From: Anaerolineae bacterium
GTDB taxonomy: Bacteria > Chloroflexota > Anaerolineae > Epilineales > JAHCIE01
NCBI GenBank assembly: GCA_034431435.1
Contig: DAOUDG010000016.1
Span: 70,574 to 134,573 of the forward strand
DNA length: 64,000 nucleotides
Direction: 5' to 3'
A model generated the notes under the pieces. It did no database searches. It had not been told where the DNA came from and worked only from the letters and a program-made list of their open reading frames with translations. The stretch's first letter is position 1; each line of letters starts with the position of its first letter. Positions 5,510-63,604 of the stretch are shown one piece after another. Position numbers and translations under genes: made by a program.

Positions 5510-5661
5510 GGCCCAGGGACTTATCTCGGTAATCGTGACCAAGGCTACCTGAGTCACCCAGCGGTGGCTGCTTACGGCTGCTCCCTTCCGGTCCTGACCG
5601 GGTTCACAGGCCGCTGCCGCTCAGGGCCCCCGTCCGTATTACCGAGATAAGCGCCTGGGCC
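5510..5661 (-). ncRNA. ffs: Signal recognition particle RNA (4.5S RNA, ffs)
   Basis: Minus-strand transcript contains CCCGGUCAGGACCGGAAGGGAGCAGCCGUAAGCAG, matching the universally conserved SRP domain IV core (GGUCAGGUCCGGAAGGAAGCAGCC). The termini pair (GGCCCAGG...CUUAUCUCGGUAAU with AUUACCGAGAUAAG...CCUGGGCC), giving the long closing helix of SRP RNA. Not detectable from the ORF track. Confidence 0.75.
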
Positions 5662-5665
5662 GATG

Positions 5666-5756
5666 TGGCGGAGAGGGGGGGATTTGAACCCCCGAGGGCT
5701 TTTGACCCAACACGATTTCCAGTCGTGCGCACTAGACCAGACTATGCGACCTCTCC
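5666..5756 (-). tRNA. tRNA-Ser (anticodon GGA), encoded CCA, long variable arm
   Basis: Reverse complement reads GGAGAGGTCGCATAGTCTGGTCTAGTGCGCACGACTGGAAATCGTGTTGGGTCAAAAGCCCTCGGGGGTTCAAATCCCCCCCTCTCCGCCA. Anticodon loop CTGGAAA, long extra arm, T-loop GGTTCAAATCC. Confidence 0.85.
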
Positions 5757-8083: not shown

Positions 8084-8095
8084 CCCCAGATGCGC

Positions 8096-14633: not shown

Positions 14634-15262
14634 CCGCCGCGCACACTGCCCCCCAGCATGCCGACTTCCCTGGCCCGAACGGGCGCGGCCCCCGTCGCCC
14701 CAACATCGCCCTCGTGGGGTTCAGTACCACCGGCAAGTCCACTGTCGCCCGCCTGCTGGCCGACCGACTGGGCTGGAGTGCGGTGGACACCGATGCCCTG
14801 GTGGTCTGCCTGGCGGGTCGCCCTATCATCGACATCTTCCGCCGCGAGGGCGAGGCAGCCTTCCGCGCCCGCGAGACCGCGGCTCTGACCGGCGCCCTGG
14901 CGGGGCGCGGCAAGGTGGTCGCCACGGGCGGCGGCGTCGTCACCCAGGCGGTCAATGAGAACCTGTTGCGCGCCCGCTCTCTTATCATCTGCCTGACCGC
15001 CGAGCCGCTGACTATCCTGAAGCGGCTCGAGCGAGCGGCAGGGTCCGAACCGCGCCCCTTGCTGAAAGCGTCCGACCCCCTGGCGCGCATCCACGAGTTG
15101 CTGGCCGAGCGCCGCGCCGCCTATGCTCAGGCCGACCTGACCATCGCCACTGACGATCTCACACCCCAACAGGTGGCACAAGAGATTCTGGCCCGCCTGA
15201 CCGCCGCCGATCTGATGCCCGACCATGTTCTACCCCCCCAAGAGGCCATCGACGATGTTTGA
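14630..15262 (+). CDS. aroK: Shikimate kinase
   Basis: Walker A GFSTTGKST, and VATGGGVV shikimate-binding motif. Overlaps the mpg stop (ATGA). Confidence 0.75.
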   Translation: MTAAHTAPQHADFPGPNGRGPRRPNIALVGFSTTGKSTVARLLADRLGWSAVDTDALVVCLAGRPIIDIFRREGEAAFRARETAALTGALAGRGKVVATGGGVVTQAVNENLLRARSLIICLTAEPLTILKRLERAAGSEPRPLLKASDPLARIHELLAERRAAYAQADLTIATDDLTPQQVAQEILARLTAADLMPDHVLPPQEAIDDV

Positions 15263-18200
15263 GTTCCATATCTCCCGTCGCGCCCGCGACCGCTATCAGT
15301 TGGATGAGAGCCTCTTCTCCTTCGATGGGCGGGTCATACTGGGTAACCTACACGCCGCCCGCGAACTCGCCCACCGGCTCAATGACGAACGTGACCTGGT
15401 TACGTACCCCGAACAGGCGGTACGACCCGGCGACGTCAACGCGATGGGCCTCCTCGACGAGTTGCAGCATGTCCTCATCCGCCGCTACCAGGAGCAGGTC
15501 GGCCCCGATCTTATGGGGCGTGCGCTAGACGCATTAGCGACCCAGGTTGGGGCGGATAACGTCGAGCGCGTCCTGCGCGAGTTCGTCGATCAGTTCCCGC
15601 CGGTGGCCGTCTACCGAGGCGACCTCACGCCGGAGCAGTACCTGGCAGGCGAGACCCAGGGCCGCAGCCACCGCGAGCTGGCCGTCGAAGAGTTGATAGT
15701 ACTCAGTGTCGCCAACATGAATCCGGCCCTGGAACAATTTCGCGAACTCTTCGACGACAGCGCGCTACGCCGCAACCCAGCCTACTCCCAGGTGATCGTT
15801 GGCCTCGACCAGTTCTTCGACAGCCAGGCCACCGTCTTCACCGGCGGCCGACCCCTGACCCCCACCGCCAGCGCATCCCTCAGCGAACTGCGCGGATTCA
15901 ACCTGTTGGACCTGTTGCGCGCCCCGGCCCTCGCCTCCCCCTATCTCCTCGATGGCCAGCTCCAGTATTTTCAGGAGCGGTTCGGTGCGCTGCTGGGCGG
16001 CTTTCTGCTACGCCTCCTGACCGGTGTTGACTTGCTCAAGGAAGAGGGGCGCTACTTTCTCGCGCAGCAGGCAGGCCCCGGTGGCCCCGGCCCCATCGAG
16101 GCCCCCGACTTCAGCCTGCTGGCTGACGAGCCGGAACAATTCAGCCTCGACACCGAATGGATGCCGCGCCTGGTGCTGCTCGCCAAGAACTCCTATGTCT
16201 GGCTCGACCAGTTGTCCCGCGAGTACAATCGCTCCATCACCCGCCTCGACGAGATTCCCGACGAAGAATTGGAGCGCCTCGGCCGTTCCGGCTTCAGCGG
16301 CTTGTGGCTCATTGGCCTGTGGGAGCGCAGCCGCGCCTCCCAGACCATCAAGCAGCTCATGGGCAACACTGACGCCGTCGCTTCAGCCTACTCTCTGTTC
16401 GACTACGACATCGCCGAGGACCTGGGCGGCGAGGCGGCCTACCAGACACTCCGCGAGCGCGCCGCGCGCTACGGCGTGCGCCTCGCCAGCGACATGGTTC
16501 CCAATCACATGGGCATCGACTCGCCGTGGGTCGTGGCCCACCCCGACTGGTTCGTCCGCCGCGACGACGTGCCCTACCCCAGCTATACCTTCACTGGGCC
16601 AAACCTGTCCTGGCACGACGGCGTGGGCATCTATCTGGAAGACCATTACTTCGACAAGACTGACGCCGCCGTGGTCTTCAAGCGCATCGATCACGGCACG
16701 GGCCACACCATCTACATCTACCACGGCAACGACGGCACCACCATGCCGTGGAACGACACGGCCCAGCTCAACTATCTACACCCTGACGTACGCGAGGCCG
16801 TCATCCAGACCATCCTCAATGTCGCGCGGCGCTTCCCTGTCATCCGCTTCGACGCCGCCATGACACTCGCCAAGCGGCACTATCAACGCCTGTGGTTCCC
16901 GGAGCCAGGTACGGGCGGCTCCATCCCGTCGCGCTCCGAGTACGCTATGACCAAGGCCCAGTTCGACGAGGCGATGCCCGAAGAGTTCTGGCGCGAGGTC
17001 GTGGACCGCGTAGCCCGCGAAGCCCCCGACACCCTGCTGCTGGCCGAAGCGTTCTGGCTCATGGAGGGCTACTTCGTCCGCACCCTCGGTATGCACCGCG
17101 TGTACAACAGCGCGTTCATGAACATGCTGCGCGATGAGGATAACGCCAAGTATCGCTCTGTTATCAAGAACACCCTGGAGTTTGACCCTGAGGTTCTCAA
17201 GCGTTACGTCAACTTCATGAACAACCCCGACGAGCGCACCGCCGCCGAGCAGTTCGGCAAGGGCGACAAGTACTTCGGCATCGCCACCCTCATGTCCACC
17301 ATGCCCGGCCTGCCGATGTTCGGCCACGGCCAGGTCGAGGGCTACAGCGAGAAGTACGGCATGGAGTTCCGCCGCCCACTGTGGGACGAACGGCCTGAAG
17401 AGTGGCTTATCGCGCGCCACGAGCGCGAGATCTTCCCGCTGCTCCACCGCCGCGCCATCTTCGCCAATGTCGACAACTTCCTCCTCTACGACTTCTACAC
17501 CGCCGACGGCACGGTCGATGAGAACGTCTACGCCTACTCCAACCGCGTCGGCGACGATCGCGCCCTCGTCCTGTACCATAACGCCTATGGCGCCACGCGC
17601 GGCTGGATTCGGCTCTCGGCGGCCTACCTCGACCGTAGCTCACCCCCCGACAACCGCCGCCTGTTGCAGCGCACCCTGGCGGACGGTCTCGACCTGCAAG
17701 CGGGCGCGGATGCCTTCACCATCTTTCGCGACCAGTCCACCGGCCTGGAATACCTGCGTAACAATCAGGAGATGACCGACCGCGGCCTGTACATCGAGTT
17801 GGGCGCGTATCGCTACCACGTCTTCATGGACTTCCGCCAGGTGATGGACGATGAGCAGCGCCGCTATACGCGACTCGCCGACCGGCTGGAGGGGCGCGGC
17901 GTGCCCAGTATCGACGAGGCCCTCCAGGAGTTGCTGTACACGCCGGTGCGCCTGCCCTTCATGCAGGTCGTCAACGCGACGGACTTCCGCCGCCTGATTC
18001 GCGTCCTGGAGCCAACGCCGACGGGAGCCAGGCCCAACGCCGACCCCCACGAGACCCGCGATGAGGTGCTGGACGACATCGAGGCCAAGACCCGCGCCAC
18101 GCTGACCGCCGTCCGCGACTTCAGCCAGGGCCAGGGCGACCCCGCGAGCATCGCTGCCGACATTCGCCGCGAGTTGGAAGCTGTCGCTGACCTGCCCCAT

Positions 18201-18923
18201 CTGGCCCGGTCGTACCGCGCCCGCAAGGGATCCGACTTCCGGGCAGCGGCGGCCTACATCGAGGATGGGCTGGACGGCGATCCGGTGGTCTGGGGGGCGT
18301 TGCTGGCCTACGTCTTCACTCGTTCCCTGGGCAAGGTGGTGACTGCCGAGGGCTTCGAGCGCCAGAGTCGCTCATGGCTGGACGAGTGGCGACTGGGCAG
18401 CATCATCGCCCGCACCCTGCGTGACCTGGGTGCGACCGACGAGCAGGCGGCGCAGGCCGTGGCCGCCATCCACGTCTTCGTCGGTCAGCAGGCATCCTTC
18501 GAGCGCCAGGCGACACCCGAGCGCCAGGCCGCCCAGGTACTGGAGACGTGGCTCAAGGACCCCGAGGTGCAGAGTCTACTGCGCATCAACCGCTTCCAGG
18601 ATACACTCTGGTTCAACAGGGAGGCCTTCGAGCGGCTGCTGTGGGGGATGCTGATCCGCGCGGCGCTGCGCGCCACTGCCGACCCCAACCTGTCGCGCAA
18701 GGCGGTGGTCGACCTGATTGGCCGTCGCTACGACATCGTGCGCCGCCTGCAACAGGCCGTGGACCAGTCCGACTACAAGGTCAACCAGTTGCTGGCCGCC
18801 GCTCGCGGCGAAGAGCTTGTGGCGGACGCGCCCGCCAACAGCAAGGGAGCCGCGAACGCCGCCCCCGCCGACAAGGCGGACGGCAAGGGGAAGGTTGTCG
18901 ACGCCGAGGAGCCATCCCCTTGA
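15255..18923 (+). CDS. Large (1222-aa) alpha-amylase-family (GH13 catalytic domain) protein with long N- and C-terminal extensions
   Basis: Central region has GH13 signatures (SGFSGLWLIGLW, VRLASDMVPNHMGIDSPW, FRFDAAM). Start ATG 15255 overlaps the aroK stop (ATGTTTGA). The track ORF begins 30 nt earlier. Confidence 0.6.
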   Translation: MFEFHISRRARDRYQLDESLFSFDGRVILGNLHAARELAHRLNDERDLVTYPEQAVRPGDVNAMGLLDELQHVLIRRYQEQVGPDLMGRALDALATQVGADNVERVLREFVDQFPPVAVYRGDLTPEQYLAGETQGRSHRELAVEELIVLSVANMNPALEQFRELFDDSALRRNPAYSQVIVGLDQFFDSQATVFTGGRPLTPTASASLSELRGFNLLDLLRAPALASPYLLDGQLQYFQERFGALLGGFLLRLLTGVDLLKEEGRYFLAQQAGPGGPGPIEAPDFSLLADEPEQFSLDTEWMPRLVLLAKNSYVWLDQLSREYNRSITRLDEIPDEELERLGRSGFSGLWLIGLWERSRASQTIKQLMGNTDAVASAYSLFDYDIAEDLGGEAAYQTLRERAARYGVRLASDMVPNHMGIDSPWVVAHPDWFVRRDDVPYPSYTFTGPNLSWHDGVGIYLEDHYFDKTDAAVVFKRIDHGTGHTIYIYHGNDGTTMPWNDTAQLNYLHPDVREAVIQTILNVARRFPVIRFDAAMTLAKRHYQRLWFPEPGTGGSIPSRSEYAMTKAQFDEAMPEEFWREVVDRVAREAPDTLLLAEAFWLMEGYFVRTLGMHRVYNSAFMNMLRDEDNAKYRSVIKNTLEFDPEVLKRYVNFMNNPDERTAAEQFGKGDKYFGIATLMSTMPGLPMFGHGQVEGYSEKYGMEFRRPLWDERPEEWLIARHEREIFPLLHRRAIFANVDNFLLYDFYTADGTVDENVYAYSNRVGDDRALVLYHNAYGATRGWIRLSAAYLDRSSPPDNRRLLQRTLADGLDLQAGADAFTIFRDQSTGLEYLRNNQEMTDRGLYIELGAYRYHVFMDFRQVMDDEQRRYTRLADRLEGRGVPSIDEALQELLYTPVRLPFMQVVNATDFRRLIRVLEPTPTGARPNADPHETRDEVLDDIEAKTRATLTAVRDFSQGQGDPASIAADIRRELEAVADLPHLARSYRARKGSDFRAAAAYIEDGLDGDPVVWGALLAYVFTRSLGKVVTAEGFERQSRSWLDEWRLGSIIARTLRDLGATDEQAAQAVAAIHVFVGQQASFERQATPERQAAQVLETWLKDPEVQSLLRINRFQDTLWFNREAFERLLWGMLIRAALRATADPNLSRKAVVDLIGRRYDIVRRLQQAVDQSDYKVNQLLAAARGEELVADAPANSKGAANAAPADKADGKGKVVDAEEPSP

Positions 18924-51434: not shown

Positions 51435-51449
51435 GAGTTGCCGGCGCAA

Positions 51450-51490
51450 GGGGGGAGCAGGCGGATCGGCCGTCTGCTCCCCCCTTGCGT
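51450..51490 (+). terminator. Hairpin GGGGGGAGCAG-(13 nt)-CTGCTCCCCCC followed by TTGCGTT
   Basis: Perfect 11-bp GC-rich stem 16 nt after the uxuA stop. Confidence 0.45.
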
Positions 51491-51623: not shown

Positions 51624-51652
51624 TTGACGGGGCGGCACAGTTGTGATAGAAT
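51624..51652 (+). promoter_or_regulatory. Sigma70-like promoter TTGACG-17-TAGAAT upstream of the large regulator gene
   Basis: Located in an AT-enriched 100-bp stretch (gaaatagatatcaaatagtcaggcattgacgg...tagaataagg). Confidence 0.45.
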
Positions 51653-51744: not shown

Positions 51745-54700
51745 GTGTCGAAGGCGAACACGCATTACCCAAAGCCGCCGCACCGTGTCCGCGAGCTTAC
51801 GCCCAATACGCATACCGTTCAACGCTCGGCGTTGGCCGCCGCTCGCGGGCAGGATGACAGCGGCTCGACCAAAAACCTACGCCACTTCCGTGGGCCAACA
51901 CGCATCCTCTCGCGCTCGGGCGCCCCCGACCGGGGCAATGCCAGCGCCCTCAGCAACCTGCCCCCCCCGGCGATCCCTCTCATTGGCCGCGACCATGAAC
52001 TGGCCGAGCTGCGTGCGCTACTCACCGAGTCGGAGGCGCGTCTCGTTACTCTGACCGGCGCGGCCGGCTGCGGCAAGTCCCGCCTGGCCCTGGAAGTCGC
52101 CGCCTCGGTCATGTCAGCCTATCCTGATGGTGTCTGGTGGGTCGACCTGGCGCACACGCCTGACGCCGACGAGGTTGTGACCCGCATCCGCGCGACGCTT
52201 CAGATGGACGAGGACGCCGACGAGTCCCCCACCGCCGTGCTGTCGCACCTTGAATCGAAGCGCCTCCTGCTCCTTCTCGATGACTGTGAGCCGCTGACGC
52301 GCGCCACGGCGGATGTGATTCACCATATCCTGGCAGCGGCTCGCGCCGTCACCATCCTGGCCACCAGCCGCGAGCCGCTGCGCCTGCCCGACGAGCGAAC
52401 CTGGCACACCCAGGCGCTGGCCGTCCCGACGGCAGCCGAGATCACCACAGGCGTCGATGCCATGCCGCCGGACGACCAGGCCCGCTATGTTGAGAGTCTG
52501 GCCGAGTACGACGCTGTCCGCCTGTTCGTGGCGCGCGCCCAGGCGGCGCGGCCCGGCTTTGCGCTGACGCCCGCGACGGTCAGCCTGGTCGGCGACATCT
52601 GCCGGCAGTTGGAAGGCCGACCGCGCGCCATCCTATTGGCCGCCGAGCGTAGCCGCGTCCTGTCGGTCGTCCAGATTGCCTCGACCCTCGGCGATCTGAT
52701 TCGCCCGCCTCGTCCCCGCGCTCGCCAGGCCGCCAGTGCTGAACAGAGCCTGCGCGCCGGCCTGGAGTGGAGCCACGCCCGACTCAGCCCCCCCGACCAG
52801 CGCGTCTTCCGTAGCCTGGCGGTATTCGAGGGCAGCGCCTCACTGGAAGCCGTCGAGGCCGTCTGCGCGCCCGCTGAGCTATCGACCCTCGAAGTCCTCG
52901 ACAGCCTGGTGGAATTAGTCGATGCCTACTTGCTGCAGGTCGAGAGCCAGTTGGGCGCCGCGCGCTATCGGTTGCCCGTCCTCAGCCGCACCTACGCGGC
53001 CGAGAAGCTCACCGCCGCCGGCGAGGGCGACACGGTGCGCGCGGCCCACGCCGCCTTCTTCGCCTGCCTGGCCGAGGCTGCCCTGCCCCACCTGGACGGC
53101 CCACAGCAGATTCAATGGATGGCGCGGCTTGACCTGGACCGGGACAATCTGCACGCGGCCCTGGCCTGGTCGCTCGAAGTCGGGGATGCCCAGACGGCGC
53201 TGCGGCTGTCGGCCTCGCTGTGGCCCTATTGGCAGGCGCGGGGCGTCAGCGACGAAACACGCCAGTTCCTCGACGCTGCCCTGGCGCTGTCGGGCACGAA
53301 TGTGGCAGAGCTTCACATCCGCACGCTCGACGGCGCGGCGACCCTCGCCTACCTCCAGGGCGACGGCGAGCGCGCCGAAACCCTGCACACGCGCAGCCTG
53401 GCCCTCAAGCGCGAGAGCGGCGATGAGGCCCGGCAGACGCCTTCGCTGTGCGCCCTGGCCGCCCTCAGCATCGACCGGCGCGACTACGAGCGGGCAGAAA
53501 CGCTGTGTCAGGAGGCCCTTAGCCTGAGCCGGGAGCGCCGCGACCGCCGCGCCACGGCCTACGCCCTCCTCCATCTCGGTCGGCTGCGTCATGCCTGCTG
53601 CGACTACCGCGCGGCGACTGCCCTGTTCGACGAGGCCGTCGCAGCCTACCGGGTATTGGGCGACGCGCGGGGGCTGGCTCTGGCCTTGAGCGCGCACGCC
53701 GCCACGGCGAGCGTCCAGGGTCGCCGCGACGAAGCGCGGACGCTCGCTGACGAGGCGCTCGGCTTGCGGCGCGAGCTTCACGACGAGATGGGCATCGCCG
53801 CCTCCCTTGCCGATCTGGGCGCGCTGGCGCGAGACAGCGGCCACCTGGATCACGCCGCCGAGTTGCTGCACGATAGCCTGACGCGCTACCGCCACCTCCG
53901 CGCGCGAGGGGGCGTCGCCCGCGTGCTGGCCGACCTGGCGCTATTGGCTGTCTACCAGGACAACCCTGCCCACGCACGGATGACCTGCGCCGAGAGCCTG
54001 ACCCTCTACGAGGAACTGGGCGCCAGCGACGGCATCGCCACGGCGCTCAGCATCCAGGCGCTCGTCACGCTCCATGACGGCGATAGCCCGCGCGCTCTGG
54101 CCCTGGCCCACAGGGCGCTAGAGATGCGCCGCAGCCAGCGCGATCAGCACGGCATCGCCGAGTGCCTCGACATCGCGGCCGCCATTTACGCCACGACCGG
54201 CCCCCTGGAGCATGCGCCCCGGCTAGAGGGCATCGCCGCCGCCTTGCGCGAGACCATCGGCGCGCCCCGCCCACCGGCCTTCGACGCCGATCTGCGGTGT
54301 CGCCTGTCCCCGGCGGTTTGTGGCCTGGGCGCAGAGCCGTATGAGGCTCTCCGCCACCAGGCGCACAGCGCCCCCTTCGAGGAACTCGACCGGTTGGCGT
54401 GCACGGAGCCGGCGCTCGCGGTTCCCGACCAGCGCGCCACGCGGCCGTCACCTGTCGTGGCGGTGGCCGCGCCGCCAGCCGCCGACTCCGGCCCCGATCT
54501 GCGCGTGCTGGCCCTCGGCCAGAGCAAGGTCTATCGTGACGAGCGACTGCTGTCCACCGCCGACTGGACCTACGCCAAGCCGCGTGAGATGCTTTTCTTC
54601 CTGCTGTCGCACCCACCGCGCACCAAGGAGCAAATCGGCGTGATGCTGTGGCCGGACGCATCGCCCAATCAGCTCCGCGCCGCGCTGCACCCGGCCCTGT

Positions 54701-55257
54701 ATCATCTGCGGCGCACCCTGGGCGACCGCCGGCGCGTCGTGACCCGCCAGGACAGCTACTCGTTCAACCGCGATATCCCCTACTACTTCGATGTTGACGA
54801 GTTTGAGTCCCTCGTGACGCAAGCCCGCCGCTACGCCGAGAAAGCCCCCAACCAGGCAATTGCGGACCTCAAGGCGGCAGTGGCCCTGTATCAGGGTGAC
54901 TTCCTCGCCGACATGACGGTCACCAGTGAGTGGGCGCTCATCCGCCGCGAGGAACTGCGCCAGACCTTCCTGGAGGCCCTGCTCCTGCTCGGGCGATTGC
55001 TCCTCGAGGCGCAACGCTACACAGAAGCGGCGGATATCTATCGGCGCGCCATCGCCCAGGATAGCTACCTGGAGGTCGCTCATCGCGAGTTGATGCGCTG
55101 CTATCAGCTGCAAGGCGAGATCAGTCGCGCCCTCAAGCACTATCAGGGCCTTGTGGAGTACCTCCGCACGGAGATGGCATCGGTCCCCGCGCCCGAGACG
55201 ACGGCCCTTTTCCAGCGCCTGGCCGCCCAGGTTGCGTATACATCTAGCGGCAAATAG
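51745..55257 (+). CDS. Large (~1170-aa) signal-transduction regulator: N-terminal NB-ARC/AAA-type ATPase, central TPR array, C-terminal OmpR-type winged helix + BTAD (SARP domain order inverted)
   Basis: Walker A TGAAGCGKSRLALEV and hhhhD Walker B LLLLLDDCEPL. Many TPR-like repeats (residues 400-800). C-terminal LRVLALGQSKVYRDERLLS...YHLRRTLGD (wHTH) followed by a BTAD helical region. Start (GTG 51745) uncertain. Confidence 0.6.
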   Translation: MSKANTHYPKPPHRVRELTPNTHTVQRSALAAARGQDDSGSTKNLRHFRGPTRILSRSGAPDRGNASALSNLPPPAIPLIGRDHELAELRALLTESEARLVTLTGAAGCGKSRLALEVAASVMSAYPDGVWWVDLAHTPDADEVVTRIRATLQMDEDADESPTAVLSHLESKRLLLLLDDCEPLTRATADVIHHILAAARAVTILATSREPLRLPDERTWHTQALAVPTAAEITTGVDAMPPDDQARYVESLAEYDAVRLFVARAQAARPGFALTPATVSLVGDICRQLEGRPRAILLAAERSRVLSVVQIASTLGDLIRPPRPRARQAASAEQSLRAGLEWSHARLSPPDQRVFRSLAVFEGSASLEAVEAVCAPAELSTLEVLDSLVELVDAYLLQVESQLGAARYRLPVLSRTYAAEKLTAAGEGDTVRAAHAAFFACLAEAALPHLDGPQQIQWMARLDLDRDNLHAALAWSLEVGDAQTALRLSASLWPYWQARGVSDETRQFLDAALALSGTNVAELHIRTLDGAATLAYLQGDGERAETLHTRSLALKRESGDEARQTPSLCALAALSIDRRDYERAETLCQEALSLSRERRDRRATAYALLHLGRLRHACCDYRAATALFDEAVAAYRVLGDARGLALALSAHAATASVQGRRDEARTLADEALGLRRELHDEMGIAASLADLGALARDSGHLDHAAELLHDSLTRYRHLRARGGVARVLADLALLAVYQDNPAHARMTCAESLTLYEELGASDGIATALSIQALVTLHDGDSPRALALAHRALEMRRSQRDQHGIAECLDIAAAIYATTGPLEHAPRLEGIAAALRETIGAPRPPAFDADLRCRLSPAVCGLGAEPYEALRHQAHSAPFEELDRLACTEPALAVPDQRATRPSPVVAVAAPPAADSGPDLRVLALGQSKVYRDERLLSTADWTYAKPREMLFFLLSHPPRTKEQIGVMLWPDASPNQLRAALHPALYHLRRTLGDRRRVVTRQDSYSFNRDIPYYFDVDEFESLVTQARRYAEKAPNQAIADLKAAVALYQGDFLADMTVTSEWALIRREELRQTFLEALLLLGRLLLEAQRYTEAADIYRRAIAQDSYLEVAHRELMRCYQLQGEISRALKHYQGLVEYLRTEMASVPAPETTALFQRLAAQVAYTSSGK

Positions 55258-55273: not shown

Positions 55274-55384
55274 ATGCAGTATCAGTTACGCAACATGGCT
55301 GTGAAGGCCTACTTCACGACCAAAATTCAAGCAGTTCCACAAGCAGTTCCGCAAGCGGCAGGCATTACACTAAAAATTGAGTAG
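55274..55384 (+). CDS. Putative 36-aa small ORF (MQYQLRNMAVKAYFTTKIQAVPQAVPQAAGITLKIE)
   Basis: Sits in an AT-rich island 17 nt after the regulator stop. Contains a tandem CAAGCAGTTCC repeat, translated as AVPQAVPQ. Coding status unproven. Confidence 0.2.
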   Translation: MQYQLRNMAVKAYFTTKIQAVPQAVPQAAGITLKIE

Positions 55385-55968
55385 ACGGTTCTTGTGTCTA
55401 CCCAGAGGATGACCGCACCAGCGTTGGTGCATACGTTGGGCCAGGACTGCCGGCGGGGGGTCGGTGGTACGCCTGAGTATAGGTGGTCCTGTGGGACACA
55501 AGCCCTCGGTCAATGGCGACCGCGGTCTCCAAATTCGGGATAACGTCGGACTTCACGCACCTCACACTCCCGAGCCTATTCCCCCCTTACCGCTGGCTCC
55601 TGCCCATGTCGGCGTAACTGAGCCTCAGTCGCCTGGTCTTGACGGCACGTCTGGATCGATGCCGTGTTCCGTGTCCTCGTCGGAGCTATCCCGCGCGGGC
55701 AGGGACGCCGGCGTCACGTTGGTCGCTGTTCCCAGCGCCCACAACGAGCGTCGTGCGCTCGCCCATAGGTGGTACGCTCAGTGCGGCATAGTCATGCACG
55801 CATGGGCGGAGCCTACCCGTCGCCCGCGACACTCTGTATATCCTCGGCAGTTCCTGCCCCGTTCGGTCCCCAACCGGCACGGATGGGCGGAGCCTGCCCA
55901 ACGGCCCTAGTCGCCTCTCTCTCCGCCCTGGCCCACAGCATTCCGGTTCCCTTTCACGACTAGCGAGG

Positions 55969-56508
55969 ATGGAAGACCTTATGGCTATGCCTGCTTTCGC
56001 ACCCACCAACTCAGTTGACGTGCCTACCTGGTACGCACTTCACACCAAGCCCCACGCTGAGCAGCAGGTGACGACGGCGTTGCAGGCGCGCGGCTTCGAG
56101 GCCTATCTGCCCACGATTCCCGTCTGGCGCGCCCGGCGCCGCCGAACCGAGGCCGAGCCGTTCTTCGCCTGCTACAGCTTCGTGCGGGTCGCCCTCTCGA
56201 CCGTGGGCCTGTCGGCTATCACCTGGGTCCCCGGCCTCCGCGCAGTCGTCAGCAGCGAGGGTCACCCCATCCCCATCGCCCCGACTGTCATTGACACGAT
56301 CCAGCGCCACCTGGGCGACCTGCCGGTGACCGGGCCGCGCCGCCTGGAGCCTGGCGATCGCGTCGAGATTACCGCTGGCCCGCTGCAAGACCTGGAGGGC
56401 ATCTTCCAGGGCCACCTGTCGAGTGTCGAGCGCGCCCAGGTACTGGTCAACGTTTTGGGGCGAATGACCCGTGTCGAGATTCGGGAGAACTGGCTCAGGA
56501 GGATCTGA
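55969..56508 (+). CDS. Specialised NusG paralog (NGN + KOW; LoaP/UpxY/TaA-like processive antiterminator)
   Basis: NGN motif WYALHTKPHAEQQVTTALQARGFEAYLP, C-terminal KOW (GDRVEITAGPLQDLEGIF). Small (179 aa) and positioned as first gene of a glycan cluster, as for cluster-specific NusG paralogs. Confidence 0.7.
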   Translation: MEDLMAMPAFAPTNSVDVPTWYALHTKPHAEQQVTTALQARGFEAYLPTIPVWRARRRRTEAEPFFACYSFVRVALSTVGLSAITWVPGLRAVVSSEGHPIPIAPTVIDTIQRHLGDLPVTGPRRLEPGDRVEITAGPLQDLEGIFQGHLSSVERAQVLVNVLGRMTRVEIRENWLRRI

Positions 56509-56509
56509 G

Positions 56510-57583
56510 ATGCTCATCGCACGAGCGCCGGTCCGCATCAGCCTCGGCGGTGGCGGAACTGACCTGGCCGCCTACTATCGCCCCTACGGGGGTATGGTCA
56601 TCAGCGCGGCCATCGACAAGTACTTCTATACCTTCATCTCGCGCGGCGCGCAGGACGAGGGGGTGCAGGTCATCTCCTCCGACTATCGAACGTTCTACCG
56701 CCACGACCCGCGCCAGCCCTTCTTCTGGGACGGCAACCTGCAGCTGCCGCGCGCCATCCTGCACCACTTCGGCGTCGAGCGTGAGTACAACGTGTTCCTG
56801 GCGTCCGAAGTCCCGCCCGGCACCGGCCTCGGCTCGTCGGGCAGCGTGGCCGTCACCCTCGTGCGCGCCCTGAGTACCCTGGCCGACATCCCCATGTCGC
56901 GACAGGAAATTGCCGAGACCGCCGCGTACATCGAGGTCGAGAAGATGGGCATGCCGGTCGGTAAGCAAGATCAGTACATCGCCGCCTTCGGCGGCGTAAA
57001 GGTGATCACCTTTAGCGCCGACGGCGTCACCGTCGAGCCGTTGCGCCTCGATGACGCCACGCTGGGACGCCTGGAGAGCCGTCTCATCCTGTTCTTCACC
57101 GGCAGTAGCCGCGAGTCATCCAACATCCTGGAGCATCAGAAGCAGGCAAGCGAGAAGCGTGATCCCGTCGTCATCGACGCCTTGCACACGATCAAGGCGC
57201 TGGCCCACGACATGCGCAGCTTCCTGGAACTGGGCGACCTGGACGGTTTCGGCCAACTGCTGGACGAGTCGTGGCGCGAGAAGAAGAAACTCGCCCCGAA
57301 CGTCTCCTCGTCGGGCATCGACCGCTGGTATGCGCTGGCTCGTCAGCACGGCGCGATTGGCGGCAAGGTGACCGGCGCGGGCGGTGGCGGCTTCCTGATG
57401 CTCTACTGCCCCATCGATCGCCAGGCCGCCGTCACTCAAGCCCTCGAAGCCGATGGCCTCGTTCGCATGAACTTCCGCTTCGACTTCCAGGGCGCAACCG
57501 TCCTCCTAAACACCCTATCACGTACGAACGGAGTCCAGACGCAGCCCTCATGGGCGACGGCGCGTAGCGCCGCCCTCCGATAG
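56510..57583 (+). CDS. GHMP-family sugar kinase, D-glycero-D-manno-heptose 7-phosphate kinase (HddA)-like
   Basis: N-terminal APVRISLGGGGTDL, and GHMP ATP motif PPGTGLGSSGSVAV. ATG 56510 four nt after the NusG-paralog stop, with RBS AGGAGG. Confidence 0.7.
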   Translation: MLIARAPVRISLGGGGTDLAAYYRPYGGMVISAAIDKYFYTFISRGAQDEGVQVISSDYRTFYRHDPRQPFFWDGNLQLPRAILHHFGVEREYNVFLASEVPPGTGLGSSGSVAVTLVRALSTLADIPMSRQEIAETAAYIEVEKMGMPVGKQDQYIAAFGGVKVITFSADGVTVEPLRLDDATLGRLESRLILFFTGSSRESSNILEHQKQASEKRDPVVIDALHTIKALAHDMRSFLELGDLDGFGQLLDESWREKKKLAPNVSSSGIDRWYALARQHGAIGGKVTGAGGGGFLMLYCPIDRQAAVTQALEADGLVRMNFRFDFQGATVLLNTLSRTNGVQTQPSWATARSAALR

Positions 57584-57603
57584 TCCCCCCTAAGGAGGTG
57601 TTC

Positions 57604-58254
57604 GTGAGAGTCGTATTTCTCGATCGCGATGGCGTCATCAACGAGAACCGCCCCGATCACGTCAAGGCGTGGTCAGAGTTCCAGTTCCTGCCGGGTGCGC
57701 TCGACGCTCTGCGTCTCCTGCGCGAGGCGGGCTGGCGGGCCATCGTGGTCACTAACCAGGCCATCATTCACCGCAATGTCGTCCCGCGTGCCACCGTGGA
57801 TGACATCAACCAGCGTATGCGCGAGACCGTCGAGATTCACGGCGGCCGCATCGATGCCGTGATGTGCTGCCCCCACCGGCCTGAAGAGAACTGCGACTGC
57901 CGCAAGCCGCGCCCTGGCCTGCTCCAACAGGCCGCGACCCAATTCAACCTGCCGCTGGACCAGTGCTACATCATCGGCGACGCCTACAGCGACATTCAGG
58001 CCGGTCGCGCCGTCGGCTGCCGCACCATCATGGTGAAGACGGGTCGGGGCTTGCAGCAGATGATGACCGCGCCGCCCTTGTCCCTGCGGCCCCATCAAGT
58101 GGCGAGCGACCTCGCCGACGCCGCCACGTGGATGGTCCGCGCTGAGCGTCGTCGCCTGCTCTTGCGTGTCTCCGACTCGGGCCTGCCCATTGGTGTGCCT
58201 GCCATCACCCCGCCCACCCTCTTTCCGTGGTCAAGCAACTCCGCCTCTACATGA
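57604..58254 (+). CDS. HAD-superfamily D,D-heptose 1,7-bisphosphate phosphatase (GmhB)-like
   Basis: FLDRDGVIN motif I, VVTNQ motif II, and zinc-binding C...H...CDCRKP loop typical of GmhB/HisB-N. GTG 57604 with RBS AAGGAGG. Confidence 0.65.
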
Positions 58255-58970
58255 TGCGGCAGGCGGCCAGCCTGCGCTACTATCTCATCGAACAGACGAT
58301 CATGACGCTCTTCGGGTGGATGCCGACCATCGTCGGCATCGGCCTGCGGAGCGTCGTGTATCGCCTGATTCTGCGCATGGACGGCACGGCCGCCATCGAG
58401 AACGGGGTGCGGCTGCGCTTCGCCAGCAACATCCGCCTGGGCCACGGCGCGTACCTTGACCACGGTGTCTACCTGCACGCCTGCCCCAACGGCATCAGCA
58501 TCGGCCCCAACAGCCTGGTGATGCATGGCTCCGTGCTGCACGTCTACAACTTCCGCCACATGCCCCATTCTGGCATCCACATTGGCCGCGATAGCTTGAT
58601 CGGCGAGTACAACGTGCTGCGCGGCCAGGGTGGCGTCACGATCGGCGATCGGGTCTATACCTCACCGCTCGTCCAGATGCTGGCGGTAAATCACCTCTTC
58701 GACGACCCCACGCGACCCTTCGTCAGTCAAGGCATCACGGCCCAGGGCATCGTGGTGGAGGATGACGTCTGGATTGGCGGCGGCGCCATCATCACCGACG
58801 GCGTGCGCATCGGCCGCGGCTCAGTGGTGGCGGCCGGCGCCGTCGTGACGAAGGATGTGCCGCCTCACACCGTCGTCGCCGGCGTTCCCGCCCGTATCGT
58901 TCGCCATATCGTCGCCAACGGCGCGCAGTCACGCGCCGAGACTGTGTATTACTCTCAGGGGGACGCATGA
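58251..58970 (+). CDS. Left-handed beta-helix (hexapeptide-repeat) acyl/acetyltransferase
   Basis: Repeated [LIV]G-x4 hexapeptides (IGDRVY..., [27 protein letters not shown]). ATG overlaps the stop of the upstream gene (ATGA). Confidence 0.65.
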
Positions 58971-60241
58971 CTGTAGACGCCGCGCTTCGACCCATCGACT
59001 TCGCCCGGCCCGCCGTCGCCGCGCCGCTGCTACCGCCGGTCACGCTGTCGGTGGTGATCCCCGCGCTCAACGAGGAAGACGGCATCGCCGACATCGTCCA
59101 CCGCATCCAGGCCGTCGCGCCTGCCTTGCGCGAGGTGGGCGTCGAGCATCTCGAAGTTATCGTCGTGGACGACGGTTCCACCGACCGGACCGCTGAGATT
59201 GTGCAGAGTATACCCGGCGCGCGCCTGGTCCGCCATCCCGTCAATCGCGGCTATGGTGCGGCCATCAAGACCGGCTTCCTCGCCGCGCATGGCGAGTTGC
59301 TCGCCTTCACCGACGCCGACGGGACGTACCCACCCGAGCGTTTCCCCAGCCTGTGCCAGGCCGCGCTCGTCGATGGGGCGGACGTGGCCGTGGGGTCGCG
59401 CCGCTCTGGGGCCGAGAGTCACATGCCGATGGTGCGGCAGGTGGGCAACTTCATCTGGTCCAACCTGGTCAGCGTCATCGGCAACCAGCGCGTGGCGGAC
59501 CCCGCCAGTGGCATGCGCGTGGTGCGCCGCGACGCGCTGGCGCAGCTGTACCCGCTGCCCGATGGCCTCAACTTTACCCCGGTGATGAGTACGCGCTCGG
59601 TCCACGAGGGCCTCAAGGTGGTCGAGATTCCCATCGCCTACAGCGAGCGCGTCGGTCGCTCCAAGCTCAGCGTGGTCAGGGACGGGACGCGCTTCCTCAA
59701 GACCATTCTCTGGACCTCGCTGGAGTATAACCCAGCGCGCCTGCTGGGCATGGTGGGGCTGGCCTGCCTTGTCGTGGCCGCCATCCTGGCGGCCGGCCTT
59801 GTCGCGCTGCGCGCCCAGGGCGTCACGCAGCTTGGACCGTGGGGCGTGTTCTGCCTGTTCACGGCGATGGTGCTCAGCTTCGTCGGCGTGAGCACGTTCT
59901 CCCTCGGCGCGACCTTCAACTATCTCGTGTCGCTCTTCCGCAAGGAGCCGGTGCGGGTGGGCCTCTTTGGGCGACCCGTCTTCAAGACGCCGCTGGATCG
60001 CCACTTCTGGTGGATGGGGCTACTGGCGGGGGCGTTGGGCGCTGCCCTCGCCGTGGTGGCTCTGGTCCTGGGTCTCCAGGGCTGGGAGATTTCGCGCTCA
60101 TGGTTCTGGATGCTGACCAGCGCTTTCCTGGCGCTGATCGGTTTGCAACTGTTCATCTCGTGGATTCTGATGCGCGTGCTAGAGGCGCTGAGCGAGCGCG
60201 AGGTGCGTATCAGCCAGGAAATGGCCCGCGCCACGCCGTAG
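58967..60241 (+). CDS. GT2 polyprenyl-phosphate glycosyltransferase (DPM1/ArnC/GtrB-like) with C-terminal membrane helices
   Basis: [11 protein letters not shown]...[12 protein letters not shown] and DADG motifs. Four C-terminal TM segments. ATGA overlap with the previous gene. Confidence 0.75.
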
Positions 60242-60280
60242 ACATCGGTCAGCGTTGCGATAGACGATCGAGGAGGGGGC

Positions 60281-61957
60281 ATGGCAGTTACCCACAATGG
60301 CATCAAGCCCGAGGACATCAAGACTCGGGACGAGCTACGTCACAACCTGGGCACGCGCCCTGTCAAAGCGCCGCGTCCGCCCGACTTTCCCGACGCGGGC
60401 GCGGCGGTACGCGACCTGACCCACACGCGGCCCTCGACGGCCGTCGATGTGCTGCTGGTCAATCCCCCGTCCCCCGACGGCGGCATCTGGATTCGCACCC
60501 AGCACCGCGTCGGGCGACGCAGCCGCGAGGAGATGGTGTGGCCACAATGCTCCCTGGCGCAGCACGCCGCGATGCTGCACCCGGAGTACAGCATCGCCAT
60601 CGTCGACTGCATCGCCGAGCGCATGTCGTGGCAGGACTTCGAGACGCTGCTGCGCGAAAAGGCGCCCAAGTACTACTTCACCCAGGTCACCGCGCCCACC
60701 CTGACCAACGACATGTACGGGGTCATGCTCGCCAAGAGCCTGGGCGCGATCACGATGGCCTTTGGCACGCATGTCACCGCCATGCCCACCGAGACGATGC
60801 GCGACTTCCCGGCGCTGGACTTCGTGATTCGCGGCGAGCCGGAGCTGACCTTCCGCGAGCTAATCGACGTCCTCGAAGGCCGCGAGACCGACCGCGCCGA
60901 GTGGGTCCAGGCGATTCTGGAGAAGTCCGATCCGTGGTGGAAGCCCGTCGGCCATCATGGCCCGCAGAACGGAACCCCCATCGACCTGACGAACCTCAAG
61001 GGGCTGGTGTGGCGCAAGGATGGCGTCATCACCATGAACGCCACGCGCCCCTGGATCGCCAACCTGGACGATCTGCCCATTCCCCTCTACCACCTGCTGC
61101 CGCTGGACAAGTACCGTATGCCCTTGATGAAGGGGCCGTTCGTGTTCATGGTCACCAGCCGCGGCTGCACGGCCGGCTGCAAGTACTGCATCAAGCACGT
61201 CACCTACCAGTGGTCGGTGCGCCTGCACTCGCCAGAGCGCATCCTCCAGGAGATGTGGCTACTCCACGACCTGGGCATCCACAACATCCACATCTACGCC
61301 GACCTCTTCACCATCAACCGCGAGCAGGTGGTCCAGCTGTGTCAGCTGATCATCAAGGAGGGATTGAAGGTCAAGTGGACCTGCAATAGCCGCGTCGACT
61401 ACGTGGACGAAGAGATGCTCAAGCTCATGGGCCGTGCGGGCTGCTGGATGATCTCGTGGGGCATCGAAAGCGGTAACGAGGCCATCCTCAAGCGCGCCGC
61501 CAAGGGCGCCGATCCCAAGAAGGCGAAGCAGGCCCTGACCTGGGCGCGGCAGGCCGGCATCAAGAACTGGGGCTACTTCATCATCGGCCTGCCCGGCGAG
61601 ACGGTCGAGACCATCCGCCAGACCATCGACTTTTCCAAGTCGCTGCCGCTGGAACTGGCGCTGTTCCACATTGCCGCCCCCTACCCCGGCACGCCCTTCT
61701 TCTTCGAGGTGGTCGAGAATGGCTGGTTCAAGCCCGGCACCAAGTGGGAGGAAGTCGATATGGACAAGGGCACCGTCCTCCAATACGACAACCTCTCCGC
61801 CGAGGACCTGATGTACTGGCAGAAACAGGCTTTCAAGGAGTGGGCCTTGCGGCCCGGCCCGGCCAAGACCTACGCCAGGATGCTGGTAAGTGATAGCGCC
61901 ACCTTCAAGCGCGCCGTTCGTGTCGGGATGGAACATCTCCAGTGGGTGCTGCGGTAG
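60281..61957 (+). CDS. Cobalamin-binding radical SAM enzyme (class B rSAM)
   Basis: N-terminal B12-binding Rossmann-like domain (VLLVNPPSP...), and rSAM cluster motif CTAGCKYC (CxxxCxxC) within FMVTSRGCTAGCKYCIK. 558 aa. Confidence 0.75.
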   Translation: MAVTHNGIKPEDIKTRDELRHNLGTRPVKAPRPPDFPDAGAAVRDLTHTRPSTAVDVLLVNPPSPDGGIWIRTQHRVGRRSREEMVWPQCSLAQHAAMLHPEYSIAIVDCIAERMSWQDFETLLREKAPKYYFTQVTAPTLTNDMYGVMLAKSLGAITMAFGTHVTAMPTETMRDFPALDFVIRGEPELTFRELIDVLEGRETDRAEWVQAILEKSDPWWKPVGHHGPQNGTPIDLTNLKGLVWRKDGVITMNATRPWIANLDDLPIPLYHLLPLDKYRMPLMKGPFVFMVTSRGCTAGCKYCIKHVTYQWSVRLHSPERILQEMWLLHDLGIHNIHIYADLFTINREQVVQLCQLIIKEGLKVKWTCNSRVDYVDEEMLKLMGRAGCWMISWGIESGNEAILKRAAKGADPKKAKQALTWARQAGIKNWGYFIIGLPGETVETIRQTIDFSKSLPLELALFHIAAPYPGTPFFFEVVENGWFKPGTKWEEVDMDKGTVLQYDNLSAEDLMYWQKQAFKEWALRPGPAKTYARMLVSDSATFKRAVRVGMEHLQWVLR

Positions 61958-61993
61958 CGTTCGGATCGACTTGACTACGGGGGGGGTTCGTGG

Positions 61994-63604
61994 ATGACCG
62001 ATTATACGCCCGACGCACGCGAGAAGGCGCTCGCGTTGCCGTCGTTGCTGCCGCCGCAGCTCCTTGTCCGCGAGCTGGCCTGCTTCGCCGTCGCGTTTGT
62101 CGGCGCTCTTCTCCTCTATGTGCCGTTCCTATCGATTCAGTTCGATGTCAATGGGATCATCGAAGCCCAGGCGGTGGAGCGCGGCGGAACGTTCCTGTTC
62201 TCCCCTAATCGGCTGTTGTATCGAGCCATAGGAGCGCTGGGGTACGAGCTGGCGCTACGGAGTTCCGGCCCATCGTTGCCGCTGTTGCAGTTCCTGAGCG
62301 CGTTCCTGTCGAGCGTAGCCATCGCGGTGTTCTGCGTCGTGGCTTTTCGGCTCACGAAGAGCATGACCGCATCGCTCTGGGCCACGGCCCTGTTGGCGAC
62401 ATCGTGGTCGTTCTGGGCCTACAGCACCGATGCCTATTACATCACCCCGGCCGCGCTGGCCATCTTCTGCGCCCTGGCGCTGCTCATTCCAGCGACGACC
62501 AGCCTGCGAGCAGCCATCGGCGCGGCGGTGTTTGTCAGTGTGGGTATCCTGTTGTGGCAGGCCAACATCTTCGCCATTCCCTTGTGCCTCGGCCTCCTGC
62601 TCTTCTACGCGCCGCGCCGCGCCCGACGCCGACGGCGGACAAACGCTCTGGCCTTCCTGGTGGTCGTCGGCGGCCTGACCGCAGCCAGCTATCTCACCGT
62701 GGCGGTCGCTGTCCATGGCCTCGGTGATGGGAAGGCGCTGCTCGACTGGCTGCTATCCCACGGCAGCGATGAATTCGGTCGCCCGCCGATCTGGGGCGTC
62801 TGGTCCCTCGACCGGGTCCCGGCCGCCGCCGTGGCGGCCATCTCTAGCTGGATTCCCGTGTGGGATGGTCTGGGCTTGAGGAAGTTAGCCCAGGGTCAGT
62901 TCCAGCTGCACAAGCTCGTCCCCCAGCTCTCCCTGGTCTCGCTGGGTATGCTGGCTGCCCTCCTGAGCCACGAGCCTACCCGCTGGAAACCAGCGCGCCC
63001 CGAATGGCGGCGGCTGGGGTGGCTGCTACTGGCCGGCTATCTTCTCTATATGCCCTTCGTGGTGTGGTGGGATCCGGCTCCCAAGTGGTTCGTCATCCCC
63101 AACGCCTTCCTGGTGTTGGGCGCCGCCCTCATGCTGTCCAGGCGCCTGCACCGCAGGAATCCAGGCCCCGTGTTCTTGTACGCCAGCCTGGTCGCCATCG
63201 TCGCGGCGGCCAACTTCACCACCTCCGTGTATCCGCGTCACACCATGTCCGGCCCGGAGATTCCCGTCGCGGAGTGCTTTGTGCAGGCGACCACGCCGCA
63301 GGATGCGCTGGTCCCGCTCGACTGGGCCTGGACGGAGTACGCGACGTATCTGTTTGGCTATCAAGGCAGGATCCTCGGACTCCCGCCGAATCTATCGGCC
63401 GTAGGCCCTATCCGCGCCGCCATCGAGAGCGCTGAGAGGTCCGGCGGCAGTGTGTACGTTGTGGACAGGCGCGACGCCCCGGCCGACGTCAAGCAGCGCA
63501 TCCGTGACACCGGCTATGCGCTCGATGCCGTCCTGGTGTTTGAGCACGAGCCTGCCTTCTCGTGTGGCGACATACACTTTTCGCGGTTACGAGCCACTCC
63601 CTAG
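61994..63604 (+). CDS. Multi-pass membrane protein, candidate GT-C-fold (ArnT/PMT-like) glycosyltransferase
   Basis: About 10-12 hydrophobic segments. Acidic first extracytoplasmic loop (FDVNGIIEAQAVERG). Basic loop PRRARRRRRTN. Large C-terminal soluble domain. The family call is inference. Confidence 0.45.
   Translation: MTDYTPDAREKALALPSLLPPQLLVRELACFAVAFVGALLLYVPFLSIQFDVNGIIEAQAVERGGTFLFSPNRLLYRAIGALGYELALRSSGPSLPLLQFLSAFLSSVAIAVFCVVAFRLTKSMTASLWATALLATSWSFWAYSTDAYYITPAALAIFCALALLIPATTSLRAAIGAAVFVSVGILLWQANIFAIPLCLGLLLFYAPRRARRRRRTNALAFLVVVGGLTAASYLTVAVAVHGLGDGKALLDWLLSHGSDEFGRPPIWGVWSLDRVPAAAVAAISSWIPVWDGLGLRKLAQGQFQLHKLVPQLSLVSLGMLAALLSHEPTRWKPARPEWRRLGWLLLAGYLLYMPFVVWWDPAPKWFVIPNAFLVLGAALMLSRRLHRRNPGPVFLYASLVAIVAAANFTTSVYPRHTMSGPEIPVAECFVQATTPQDALVPLDWAWTEYATYLFGYQGRILGLPPNLSAVGPIRAAIESAERSGGSVYVVDRRDAPADVKQRIRDTGYALDAVLVFEHEPAFSCGDIHFSRLRATP

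Follow-up and report, generated by a model that had tools for sequence, protein, structure and literature searches.

A Chloroflexota regulator with a C-terminal SARP module and a candidate promoter box just past its gene

Introduction

What might a large regulatory ATPase control when its DNA-binding module comes last rather than first? This question is raised by an open reading frame (ORF) in a 64,000-nucleotide stretch of DNA, referred to below as the window, from an uncultured Anaerolineae (Chloroflexota) bacterium (assembly GCA_034431435.1, contig DAOUDG010000016.1, positions 70,574 to 134,573 of the forward strand). The host is not an actinomycete, and the G+C content is about 67%. The ORF codes for a protein built from the same parts as AfsR, a 'large' SARP of Streptomyces, and it is followed by an operon whose first gene codes for a NusG paralog. 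We describe the identities and order of the protein's domains, its intact Walker motifs, its membership in a large family, and a conserved promoter-like element downstream of its gene. The regulator is probably a signal-gated transcription activator of the STAND class that binds a box in this element and switches on the adjacent, NusG-paralog-led glycan operon.

51745-55257, + strand: regulator ORF, 1170 amino acids, GTG start

Domain organization of the regulator

51970-53016, + strand: nucleotide-binding oligomerisation domain (NOD) of the NB-ARC/AfsR type, made of a nucleotide-binding domain (NBD), a helical domain and a winged-helix domain, amino acids 76-424
52057-52080, + strand: Walker A P-loop GAAGCGKS, amino acids 105-112, read from the sequence
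53026-54399, + strand: arm and tetratricopeptide repeat (TPR) sensor region, amino acids 428-885, about 23 helices
54400-54498, + strand: flexible linker rich in proline and alanine, amino acids 886-918, with pLDDT (predicted local distance difference test) below 50 at amino acids 890-914 of the full-length model
54499-54789, + strand: OmpR-type winged helix-turn-helix, the SARP DNA-binding domain, amino acids 919-1015, by profile and model
54790-55239, + strand: bacterial transcriptional activation domain (BTAD), amino acids 1016-1165, by Pfam and structural match to AfsR and EmbR

From N- to C-terminus, the protein has a disordered N-terminus, an NB-ARC-type NTPase, TPRs, a flexible linker and a SARP module. 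In effect, it is a permuted AfsR, whose SARP module comes at the C-terminus instead of the N-terminus. An earlier note, made from the letters of the DNA, had proposed this inverted order of ATPase, TPR, winged helix and BTAD, and Pfam, a family profile and AlphaFold models all confirm it. The SARP module occupies amino acids 919-1165 of 1170 and ends 5 residues short of the stop codon.

The same note expected the C-terminal region to score as both Trans_reg_C and BTAD, and only the second of these expectations held in Pfam. BTAD is matched at amino acids 1015-1159 with 91.9 bits (cut-off 22.1), directly after the wing, while the winged helix was recovered by profile and structure. Because Pfam Trans_reg_C fails in this subfamily, reaching E<=0.031 in just 2 of 25 family members, profile and structure tests were used in its place. 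A profile of 25 C-terminal modules matches the SARP domain of AfsR end to end (8hvr_I, E=5e-20, profile positions 3-252 on chain positions 39-286) and also matches EmbR (2fez, E=1e-14). When the profile is limited to the winged helix, or about 105 residues before BTAD, a search of PDB sequences returns the AfsR DNA-binding domain alone (E=3e-4), with EmbR matched weakly (E=0.16). An AlphaFold2 model of amino acids 910-1170 (pLDDT 93.6) has a topology of beta-sheet, three helices and beta-hairpin. It superposes on the AfsR SARP structure 8k60_J with template modelling (TM) scores of 0.78/0.82 over 251 columns, and on EmbR with a TMq of 0.79. The recognition helix of the winged helix reads NQLRAALHPALYHLRRTLG. 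Searches of solved structures with the single sequence gave TPR proteins plus a marginal EmbR match and nothing else, so family profiles were needed. Pfam finds no GerE/LuxR domain in the regulator.

The NTPase is likewise closest to that of AfsR. Pfam NB-ARC is matched at amino acids 91-209 with 37.9 bits (cut-off 23.5), and the Walker B motif LLLLDDCE, at amino acids ~174-182, is intact. Of 74 homologues with the same architecture, 73 have Walker A and 69 have a motif like Walker B. A profile of the NTPase region finds the AfsR NOD as its best solved relative (E=9e-21, profile positions 1-342 on AfsR 289-622), with Apaf-1 and plant NLRs ranked after it; MalT was not matched when the NOD profile was compared with solved structures. 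The arrangement of a P-loop NTPase with Walker A and B motifs, then helical and winged-helix domains, places the regulator in the NB-ARC/AP-ATPase clade of STAND proteins. The AfsR switch region RYRFHDLVRLYA aligns with RYRLPVLSRTYA in the regulator, and the family consensus at this place is RYRLLETvRQYA.

A full-length model (pLDDT 85) contains the NBD, the helical domain, the winged-helix domain, about 23 TPR/arm helices, the disordered linker and the SARP module, and amino acids 1-66 are predicted to be disordered. The helices of the TPR region form regular pairs with pLDDT above 90. Pfam recognizes TPR_12 six times, TPR_10, and TPR_MalT below threshold (37.6 bits, cut-off 45). The TPR_12 and TPR_MalT matches lie at amino acids ~570-800, and the region holds about 10 TPR pairs. 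The top PDB match of the full-length model is the archaeal STAND-TPR protein 6mfv, followed by Apaf-1 and CED-4.

Many bacterial STAND-TPR proteins are anti-phage sensors (PMC13581612), which raises the prospect that the protein is an NLR-like STAND defence or death protein with a C-terminal effector that does not act on DNA. This explanation, like that of an assembly or fusion artefact, is scarcely credible. The defence-system models of PADLOC give a generic TPR match and no specific match to the regulator, and the match of the C-terminal module to a DNA-bound transcription activator extends from end to end. Against an artefact stand the thousands of independent sequences that carry the same fusion, and its presence in several assemblies of the organism.

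Distribution of the architecture

Far from being a singleton, the architecture is that of a very large family, mostly from Chloroflexota. A homology search with the regulator gave 7297 proteins at E<=1e-5. When the query's own segments were mapped onto each of the best 120 homologues to assign domain order, 74 had the same order, 36 had the classical AfsR order and 10 had no detectable BTAD. The precomputed Pfam lists of these 10 proteins include GerE/LuxR, HTH_3 or nucleotide-cyclase domains, so that the homologue set includes relatives in which such a domain replaces the SARP module. A hidden Markov model of the C-terminal module, run against 1.84 billion cluster representatives, found 12,748 proteins at E<=1e-30. 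Among the best 150 of these, all except one carry the module at the extreme C-terminus, and about 90 of those are at least 940 amino acids long.

A scan of species-representative genomes, which used an alignment of 9 closer sequences, gave 80 loci at which the module lies no more than 21 amino acids from the stop codon; the sole exception is locus L057, where the frame runs off the contig. Most of the 80 loci are from Chloroflexota, including Anaerolineae, Thermoflexales, Ktedonobacterales, Chloroflexia, Promineifilaceae and Caldilineaceae, and the remaining hosts are Rubrobacteraceae, Gemmatimonadota, Acidimicrobiales, Streptosporangiaceae and Acidobacteria. Several metagenome-assembled genomes (MAGs) carry two or more paralogues, and some family members have a more divergent NTPase (NPHP3_N/AAA_22-like) N-terminal to the TPRs. 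A rough neighbour-joining tree built on the NOD places most inverted proteins in one block and calls for at least 5 changes of order. In some genomes (L091, L093), classical-order SARP-NOD-TPR paralogues occur as adjacent pairs, in tandem or convergent.

Published SARP classes are defined by an N-terminal SARP module, which in the regulator is preceded by the NOD and the TPRs. A review that divides SARPs into small, medium, large and SARP-LAL classes (PMC10972967) gives N-terminal arrangements only, as do recent papers on AfsR (PMC10936776; bioRxiv 10.64898/2026.09.02.748808). We found no description of a C-terminal SARP/BTAD architecture in the literature searched, which is not proof of its absence. 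The automatic name given by JGI is 'predicted ATPase/DNA-binding SARP family transcriptional activator'. With its permuted AfsR-type architecture, the regulator belongs to a family that is huge and experimentally untouched.

A candidate box and -10 element downstream of the regulator gene

55328-55363, + strand: tandem direct repeats with a 12-nucleotide period, units CAAGCAGTTCCA, CAAGCAGTTCCG and CAAGCGGcaggc; candidate box for the SARP module
55366-55371, + strand: -10-like hexamer TACACT, 7 nucleotides past the CAAGCGG core of the third repeat

A 12-nucleotide direct repeat, with two copies of CAAGCAGTTCC plus a partial third (CAAGCGG), begins 71 nucleotides past the stop codon of the regulator. 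No exact tandem copy of the repeat 11-mer occurs elsewhere in the window. If TACACT serves as the -10 element, the repeat units span about -50 to -15. There is no -35 consensus at the element and a sigma-70 scan gives no full promoter; the repeats occupy the -35 position. A promoter that needs an activator would be expected to give this outcome in the scan. SARP promoters in the literature have direct repeats, spaced 11 or 22 bp apart, that overlap the -35 region, with 8 bp between the 3' repeat and the -10; AfsR occupies two 11-bp repeats, at -40 to -19, as a side-by-side dimer (PMC10936776).

The element is conserved well beyond its surroundings. The repeats are nearly invariant in the orthologous loci L005, L009 and L010. 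Compared with an orthologue whose protein is 74% identical, the first 165 nucleotides after the stop codon are 87% identical and gap-free; identity is lower in the regulator gene (78%) and in the remainder of the spacer (66%), where gaps are numerous. A more distant relative, L012, whose SARP module is 55% identical, carries the units AAAGCGATTCCT, CAAGCGATTCCT and AAAGC, then TATACT, in the same register. There the spacer around the box has diverged, and both full copies share a change from AG to GA. This conservation of the box supports a function.

Sites over the -35 and spacer region can repress as well as activate, and PMC10972967 mentions one SARP with an NB-ARC domain, Atr32, that acts negatively. 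The regulator might then bind the repeats as a repressor that blocks RNA polymerase at this position, or play a dual role. We judge this highly unlikely: BTAD is fully conserved, and the lack of a -35 consensus is what SARP promoters that need an activator typically show, with the SARP itself standing in for the -35 contact (PMC10936776).

Metagenomes were also scanned with AAGCNNTTCCNNAAGCNNTTCCNNAAGC as a possible source of orthologous boxes, and this approach was set aside. It gave at least 120 matches, nearly all of them generic 12-nucleotide tandem or coding repeats from unrelated organisms, and only one true orthologue (L158). The scan carries no information on concerted evolution.

Repeats with a 12-nucleotide period across the family

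Fifty-two genome loci have at least 200 nucleotides of DNA after the regulator gene. Among these, tandem repeats with at least 10 of 11 matches were counted when they lay no more than 400 nucleotides from the stop codon. A period of exactly 12 is found at 13 loci, eight of which match at 11 of 11 positions. Each of the other periods from 8 to 17 is found at 0-4 loci. Upstream of the open frame the number of loci is 1-3, and mononucleotide shuffles give a mean of 0.17 loci and a maximum of 2. In other 400-nucleotide segments of the same loci the frequency of period 12 is 3.6%, compared with 25% downstream of the regulator.

At 16 of 17 family loci the repeats are followed by TAnnnT, which lies 29-43 nucleotides from where the first unit starts. 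The repeats vary in sequence from locus to locus and fall into a dozen classes, and the recognition helix is shared within a class. The two loci with CGTTTACCCC both have the helix KVKATFHTTKFR, and the three loci with TTTCCTATAC have LR(A/S)ALYHLR. Ten first downstream genes were scanned, and the eight that could be identified code for two NHL propellers, a P450, AzlC, three DUF5317 proteins and a PD40/Big_2 protein. Since the downstream genes vary, the regulator, not its target, is the constant partner of the repeats.

These data also bear on a different explanation, in which the protein regulates globally or at remote sites, as AfsR does, its adjacency to the glycan operon is incidental, and the repeats are bound by another factor or arose by neutral slippage. 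AfsR and 58% of actinomycete AfsR-like proteins are not situated in clusters (bioRxiv 10.64898/2026.09.02.748808), gene order is informative among close relatives only, repeats with a 12-nucleotide period are common in metagenomes generally, and 75% of family loci lack a clean repeat. We nonetheless consider a remote-acting regulator unlikely. The regulator, not the downstream gene, is what the 13 period-12 loci have in common, L012 keeps the repeats with a concerted change despite divergence of the flanking DNA, the distance from the repeats to the -10-like hexamer is fixed, and loci of one repeat class have matching recognition helices.

Four relatives with the classical domain order were also checked. 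One (L092) has a perfect repeat with an 11-nucleotide period upstream of its gene, one has a 14-nucleotide repeat and two have none, a sample too small for a conclusion on 11 versus 12 nucleotides. The repeat of L092 lies at ~2867-2900, in the spacer upstream of the N-terminal-SARP relative P0076, and consists of two copies of GCAGCGTCCCG with a third nearby. This single case fits the published 11-bp rule, unlike the 12 nucleotides of the C-terminal family.

The putative leader, the NusG paralog and the glycan operon

55378-55968, + strand: putative long untranslated leader (~590 nucleotides) of the downstream operon, placed from the position of the -10 element
55969-56508, + strand: NusG paralog, the gene that leads the operon, with its start at 55981 in public gene calls
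56471-63604, + strand: glycan-type biosynthetic genes, by Pfam and NCBIfam

A spacer of 711 nucleotides separates the regulator from the NusG paralog. The earlier note had cast the regulator as the activator of a biosynthetic cluster led by such a paralog. Pfam NusG (59.8 bits) confirms the leading gene, whose product contains an NGN domain. The cluster is indeed biosynthetic, although not of the classical secondary-metabolite type, as its content is that of sugar and glycan synthesis. The proposed role as activator gains support from the conserved repeat plus -10 element and its recurrence across the family, which are features of sequence.

The NusG paralog scores below the NCBIfam cut-offs for all four families compared (cut-offs in parentheses): RfaH 81.3 (144.5), UpxY 61.4 (100), LoaP 37.4 (125) and NusG 52.7 (135.7). 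The adjacency of regulator and NusG paralog is kept in L005-L008, L010 and L012, and in L012 the regulator is followed by a NusG paralog (57% identical) and then by a kinase (74%).

Genes of the operon code for an HddA-like GHMP kinase, a GmhB-like HAD phosphatase, a hexapeptide acetyltransferase, a protein similar to GT2 polyprenyl-phosphate glycosyltransferases, a B12-binding radical SAM enzyme and a protein of 536 amino acids with no family match. Beyond the window, genes for another GT2 protein, an EamA protein and a UDP-GlcNAc 2-epimerase follow. The cluster is of the glycan type, for a surface polysaccharide or glycoconjugate, rather than of the polyketide or peptide type. The 536-amino-acid protein (61994-63604; 20252-21859 in L001) is only 88% identical in the assembly of the organism from another sample, where all the neighbouring genes are 99-100% identical, and its gene looks like a strain-level variable one within the glycan cluster. 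Compared with the next species (L005-L008), the cluster proteins are 85-96% identical and the regulator only 74%, so that evolution is much faster in the regulator than in the genes it is presumed to control.

Within the putative leader, indels between orthologues disrupt every ORF, and no Rfam families were found in the spacers. A small hairpin, GTAGAC-ggttcttgt-GTCTAC, lies at its predicted 5' end (55382-55402), and two substitutions in relatives keep G-U pairs. Folding of the putative leader start does not differ significantly from that of shuffled sequences (z = -0.76). An element of 30 nucleotides, GCACG(C/G)ATGGGCGGAGCCT(A/G)CCC, occurs twice in the putative leader, at 55796-55825 and 55877-55906, with the copies 81 nucleotides apart. 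Close relatives keep both copies, and L012 keeps the first as GTGCACGGATCGGCGGAGCCTGG. The NusG paralog may load at this element. Its core GGCGGAGCCTG recalls the ops site of RfaH (GGCGGTAG..., PMC2871177), a resemblance that is no more than a lead, as the 11-mer by itself is not unusual in the GC-rich window (3 found and 5.6 expected, with one mismatch allowed).

The regulator gene and its surroundings

51624-51652, + strand: sigma-70-like promoter of the regulator gene, TTGACG - 17 nucleotides - TAGAAT, with a TG extension

The identical product of 1170 amino acids is called in several public assemblies of the same MAG, and the gene is present with the same neighbouring genes in CAZAPX010000001.1 (MAG GCA_964487095.1). 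Among species representatives, the closest one found, with 91% identity in the C-terminal module, is 'Anaerolineae bacterium TGS_CHL1'. The GTG start and the preceding run of G nucleotides, which resembles a Shine-Dalgarno sequence, are kept in three related species. Over the first 240 nucleotides from the GTG, substitutions at codon positions 1/2/3 number 24/20/40 and there are 0 indels. The conserved GTG and G-run, together with this coding-type substitution pattern, make the annotated start plausible. The promoter matches the consensus at 10 of 12 positions, where shuffles of the region are expected to give 0.5 such sites, and both hexamers are kept in L005, L009 and L010.

The upstream neighbours are sugar-catabolic genes (a PMI-like gene and UxuA). 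Directly 3' of the uxuA stop codon is a long, GC-rich hairpin at 51446-51489 (GCAAGGGGGGAGCAGGCGG ... CCGTCTGCTCCCCCCTTGC), with a similar one in L005, and it looks like a terminator that divides the sugar-catabolic genes from the regulator. No regulator paralogues were found among the large ORFs scanned elsewhere in the window, which include genes for valyl-tRNA synthetase, urocanase and a GHL10-family protein. Two others, 15225-18923 (+ strand, 1232 amino acids) and 6605-8914 (+ strand, 769 amino acids), have no Pfam match at E<=1e-5 and are predicted frames only. A bacterial small signal recognition particle RNA (73 bits) at 5535-5633 (- strand) adjoins a tRNA gene at 5669-5756 (- strand).

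Proposed mechanism

By analogy with AfsR and MalT, the NOD and the TPRs would hold the SARP module inactive until the TPRs sense a ligand and ATP is bound. In AfsR, ATP binding relieves inhibition by the NOD and TPR (PMC10936776). Two or three SARP modules would then bind side by side on the repeats at 55328-55363. Because the repeats sit at the -35/spacer position of the TACACT promoter, the bound modules could replace the missing -35 contact and recruit RNA polymerase. Transcription would pass through the leader into the NusG paralog and the glycan-synthesis genes, and the NusG paralog would probably sustain elongation through the long operon.

Several points weigh against this model. The candidate repeats have a period of 12 nucleotides, where 11 or 22 are reported for SARPs (PMC10936776), and the transcription start and the -10 element are themselves predictions. 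Coding DNA is enriched for periods in multiples of 3 (9, 12, 15); the counted repeats are intergenic, all located before the first long downstream ORF, with L059 having no downstream ORF in the DNA examined. A clean repeat with a period of 12 is found in 25% of family loci, and a threshold of at least 9 of 11 matches raises this to 17 of 52 (~33%), so the period-12 rule is not universal. No NusG paralog lies within 6 kb in L015 and L021, whose modules are 55% identical. Within the protein, Pfam Trans_reg_C gives no score on the winged helix, and the 'HD' of the AfsR switch (RYRFHDL) is replaced in the regulator (RYRLPVL) and in the family consensus (RYRLLET). An F/Y-H-D activation-switch motif has been described for the AfsR-like STAND subgroup (bioRxiv 10.64898/2026.09.02.748808); as the 'HD' is not kept, the switch of the regulator may work differently.

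A broader proposal, which we advance tentatively and would place slightly on the doubtful side, is that STAND proteins with a C-terminal SARP make up a large family, found mainly in Chloroflexota, of 'regulator plus private promoter' cassettes. Close behind its stop codon, each paralog would have its own tandem box with a 12-bp period and a -10 element, to switch on whichever gene comes next. The spacing of 12 bp, where classical N-terminal SARPs have 11, would reflect another arrangement of the SARP modules, brought about by their C-terminal tethering to an oligomerising NOD. At this locus the cassette would be stacked on a NusG-paralog antiterminator, giving two-tier control of initiation and elongation.

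Comparison with known systems

AfsR and the other 'large' Streptomyces SARPs (SARP, NB-ARC NOD, TPR) consist of the same three blocks, and AfsR is the closest solved relative for both the SARP module and the NOD. The two proteins also share a P-loop switch and, for the regulator putatively, a target of direct repeats over the -35/spacer region. However, the regulator carries its SARP module last, attached through a disordered linker, whereas that of AfsR comes first. The regulator also lacks the 'HD' motif, has a repeat period of 12 rather than 11 nucleotides and belongs to a Chloroflexota host. It adjoins a glycan operon, whereas AfsR targets afsS or an antibiotic cluster.

With MalT and other LAL proteins (NTPase, sensor repeats, C-terminal LuxR HTH), the regulator shares a topology of switch, sensor and C-terminal DNA-binding effector. 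As cited in PMC10936776, MalT activation is ligand- and ATP-dependent. Module order alone is shared, however, because the NTPase of the regulator belongs to the NB-ARC/AfsR clade and its DNA-binding module is a SARP, not LuxR/GerE. EmbR of Mycobacterium tuberculosis has the same SARP module fold, but there the SARP is N-terminal and joined to FHA, with no NTPase or TPR. The SARP-LAL proteins PimR, FilR and SanG resemble the regulator in that they join a SARP module to a large regulatory half that binds ATP (PMC10972967), but in them the module is N-terminal.

The operon itself has counterparts of another kind. RfaH-dependent enterobacterial operons and UpxY-led Bacteroides capsule loci are polysaccharide operons led by a NusG paralog. 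The present locus resembles them in having a leading NusG paralog after a long leader and in being devoted to glycan synthesis, and it differs in that its paralog falls below the RfaH, UpxY and LoaP cut-offs. We found no description, in the literature searched, of a NusG-paralog operon coupled to an upstream STAND-SARP activator.

Significance

In the literature searched, SARPs are activators of actinomycete antibiotic pathways with an N-terminal DNA-binding module. Here the same module is C-terminal, in a family of thousands of proteins from Chloroflexota and several other phyla. With such a family, the effect of domain order on auto-inhibition in NLR-like switches can be studied as a natural experiment. 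Of the new results, the apparent family-wide 12-nucleotide box, a computational finding, is probably the most useful. The family appears to carry a simple target rule of a tandem box and a -10 element just past the gene. Silent operons might be switched on by expressing the isolated C-terminal module, as has been done with the AfsR SARP domain. If the target rule is true, the regulons of these mostly uncultured organisms would be readable from sequence.

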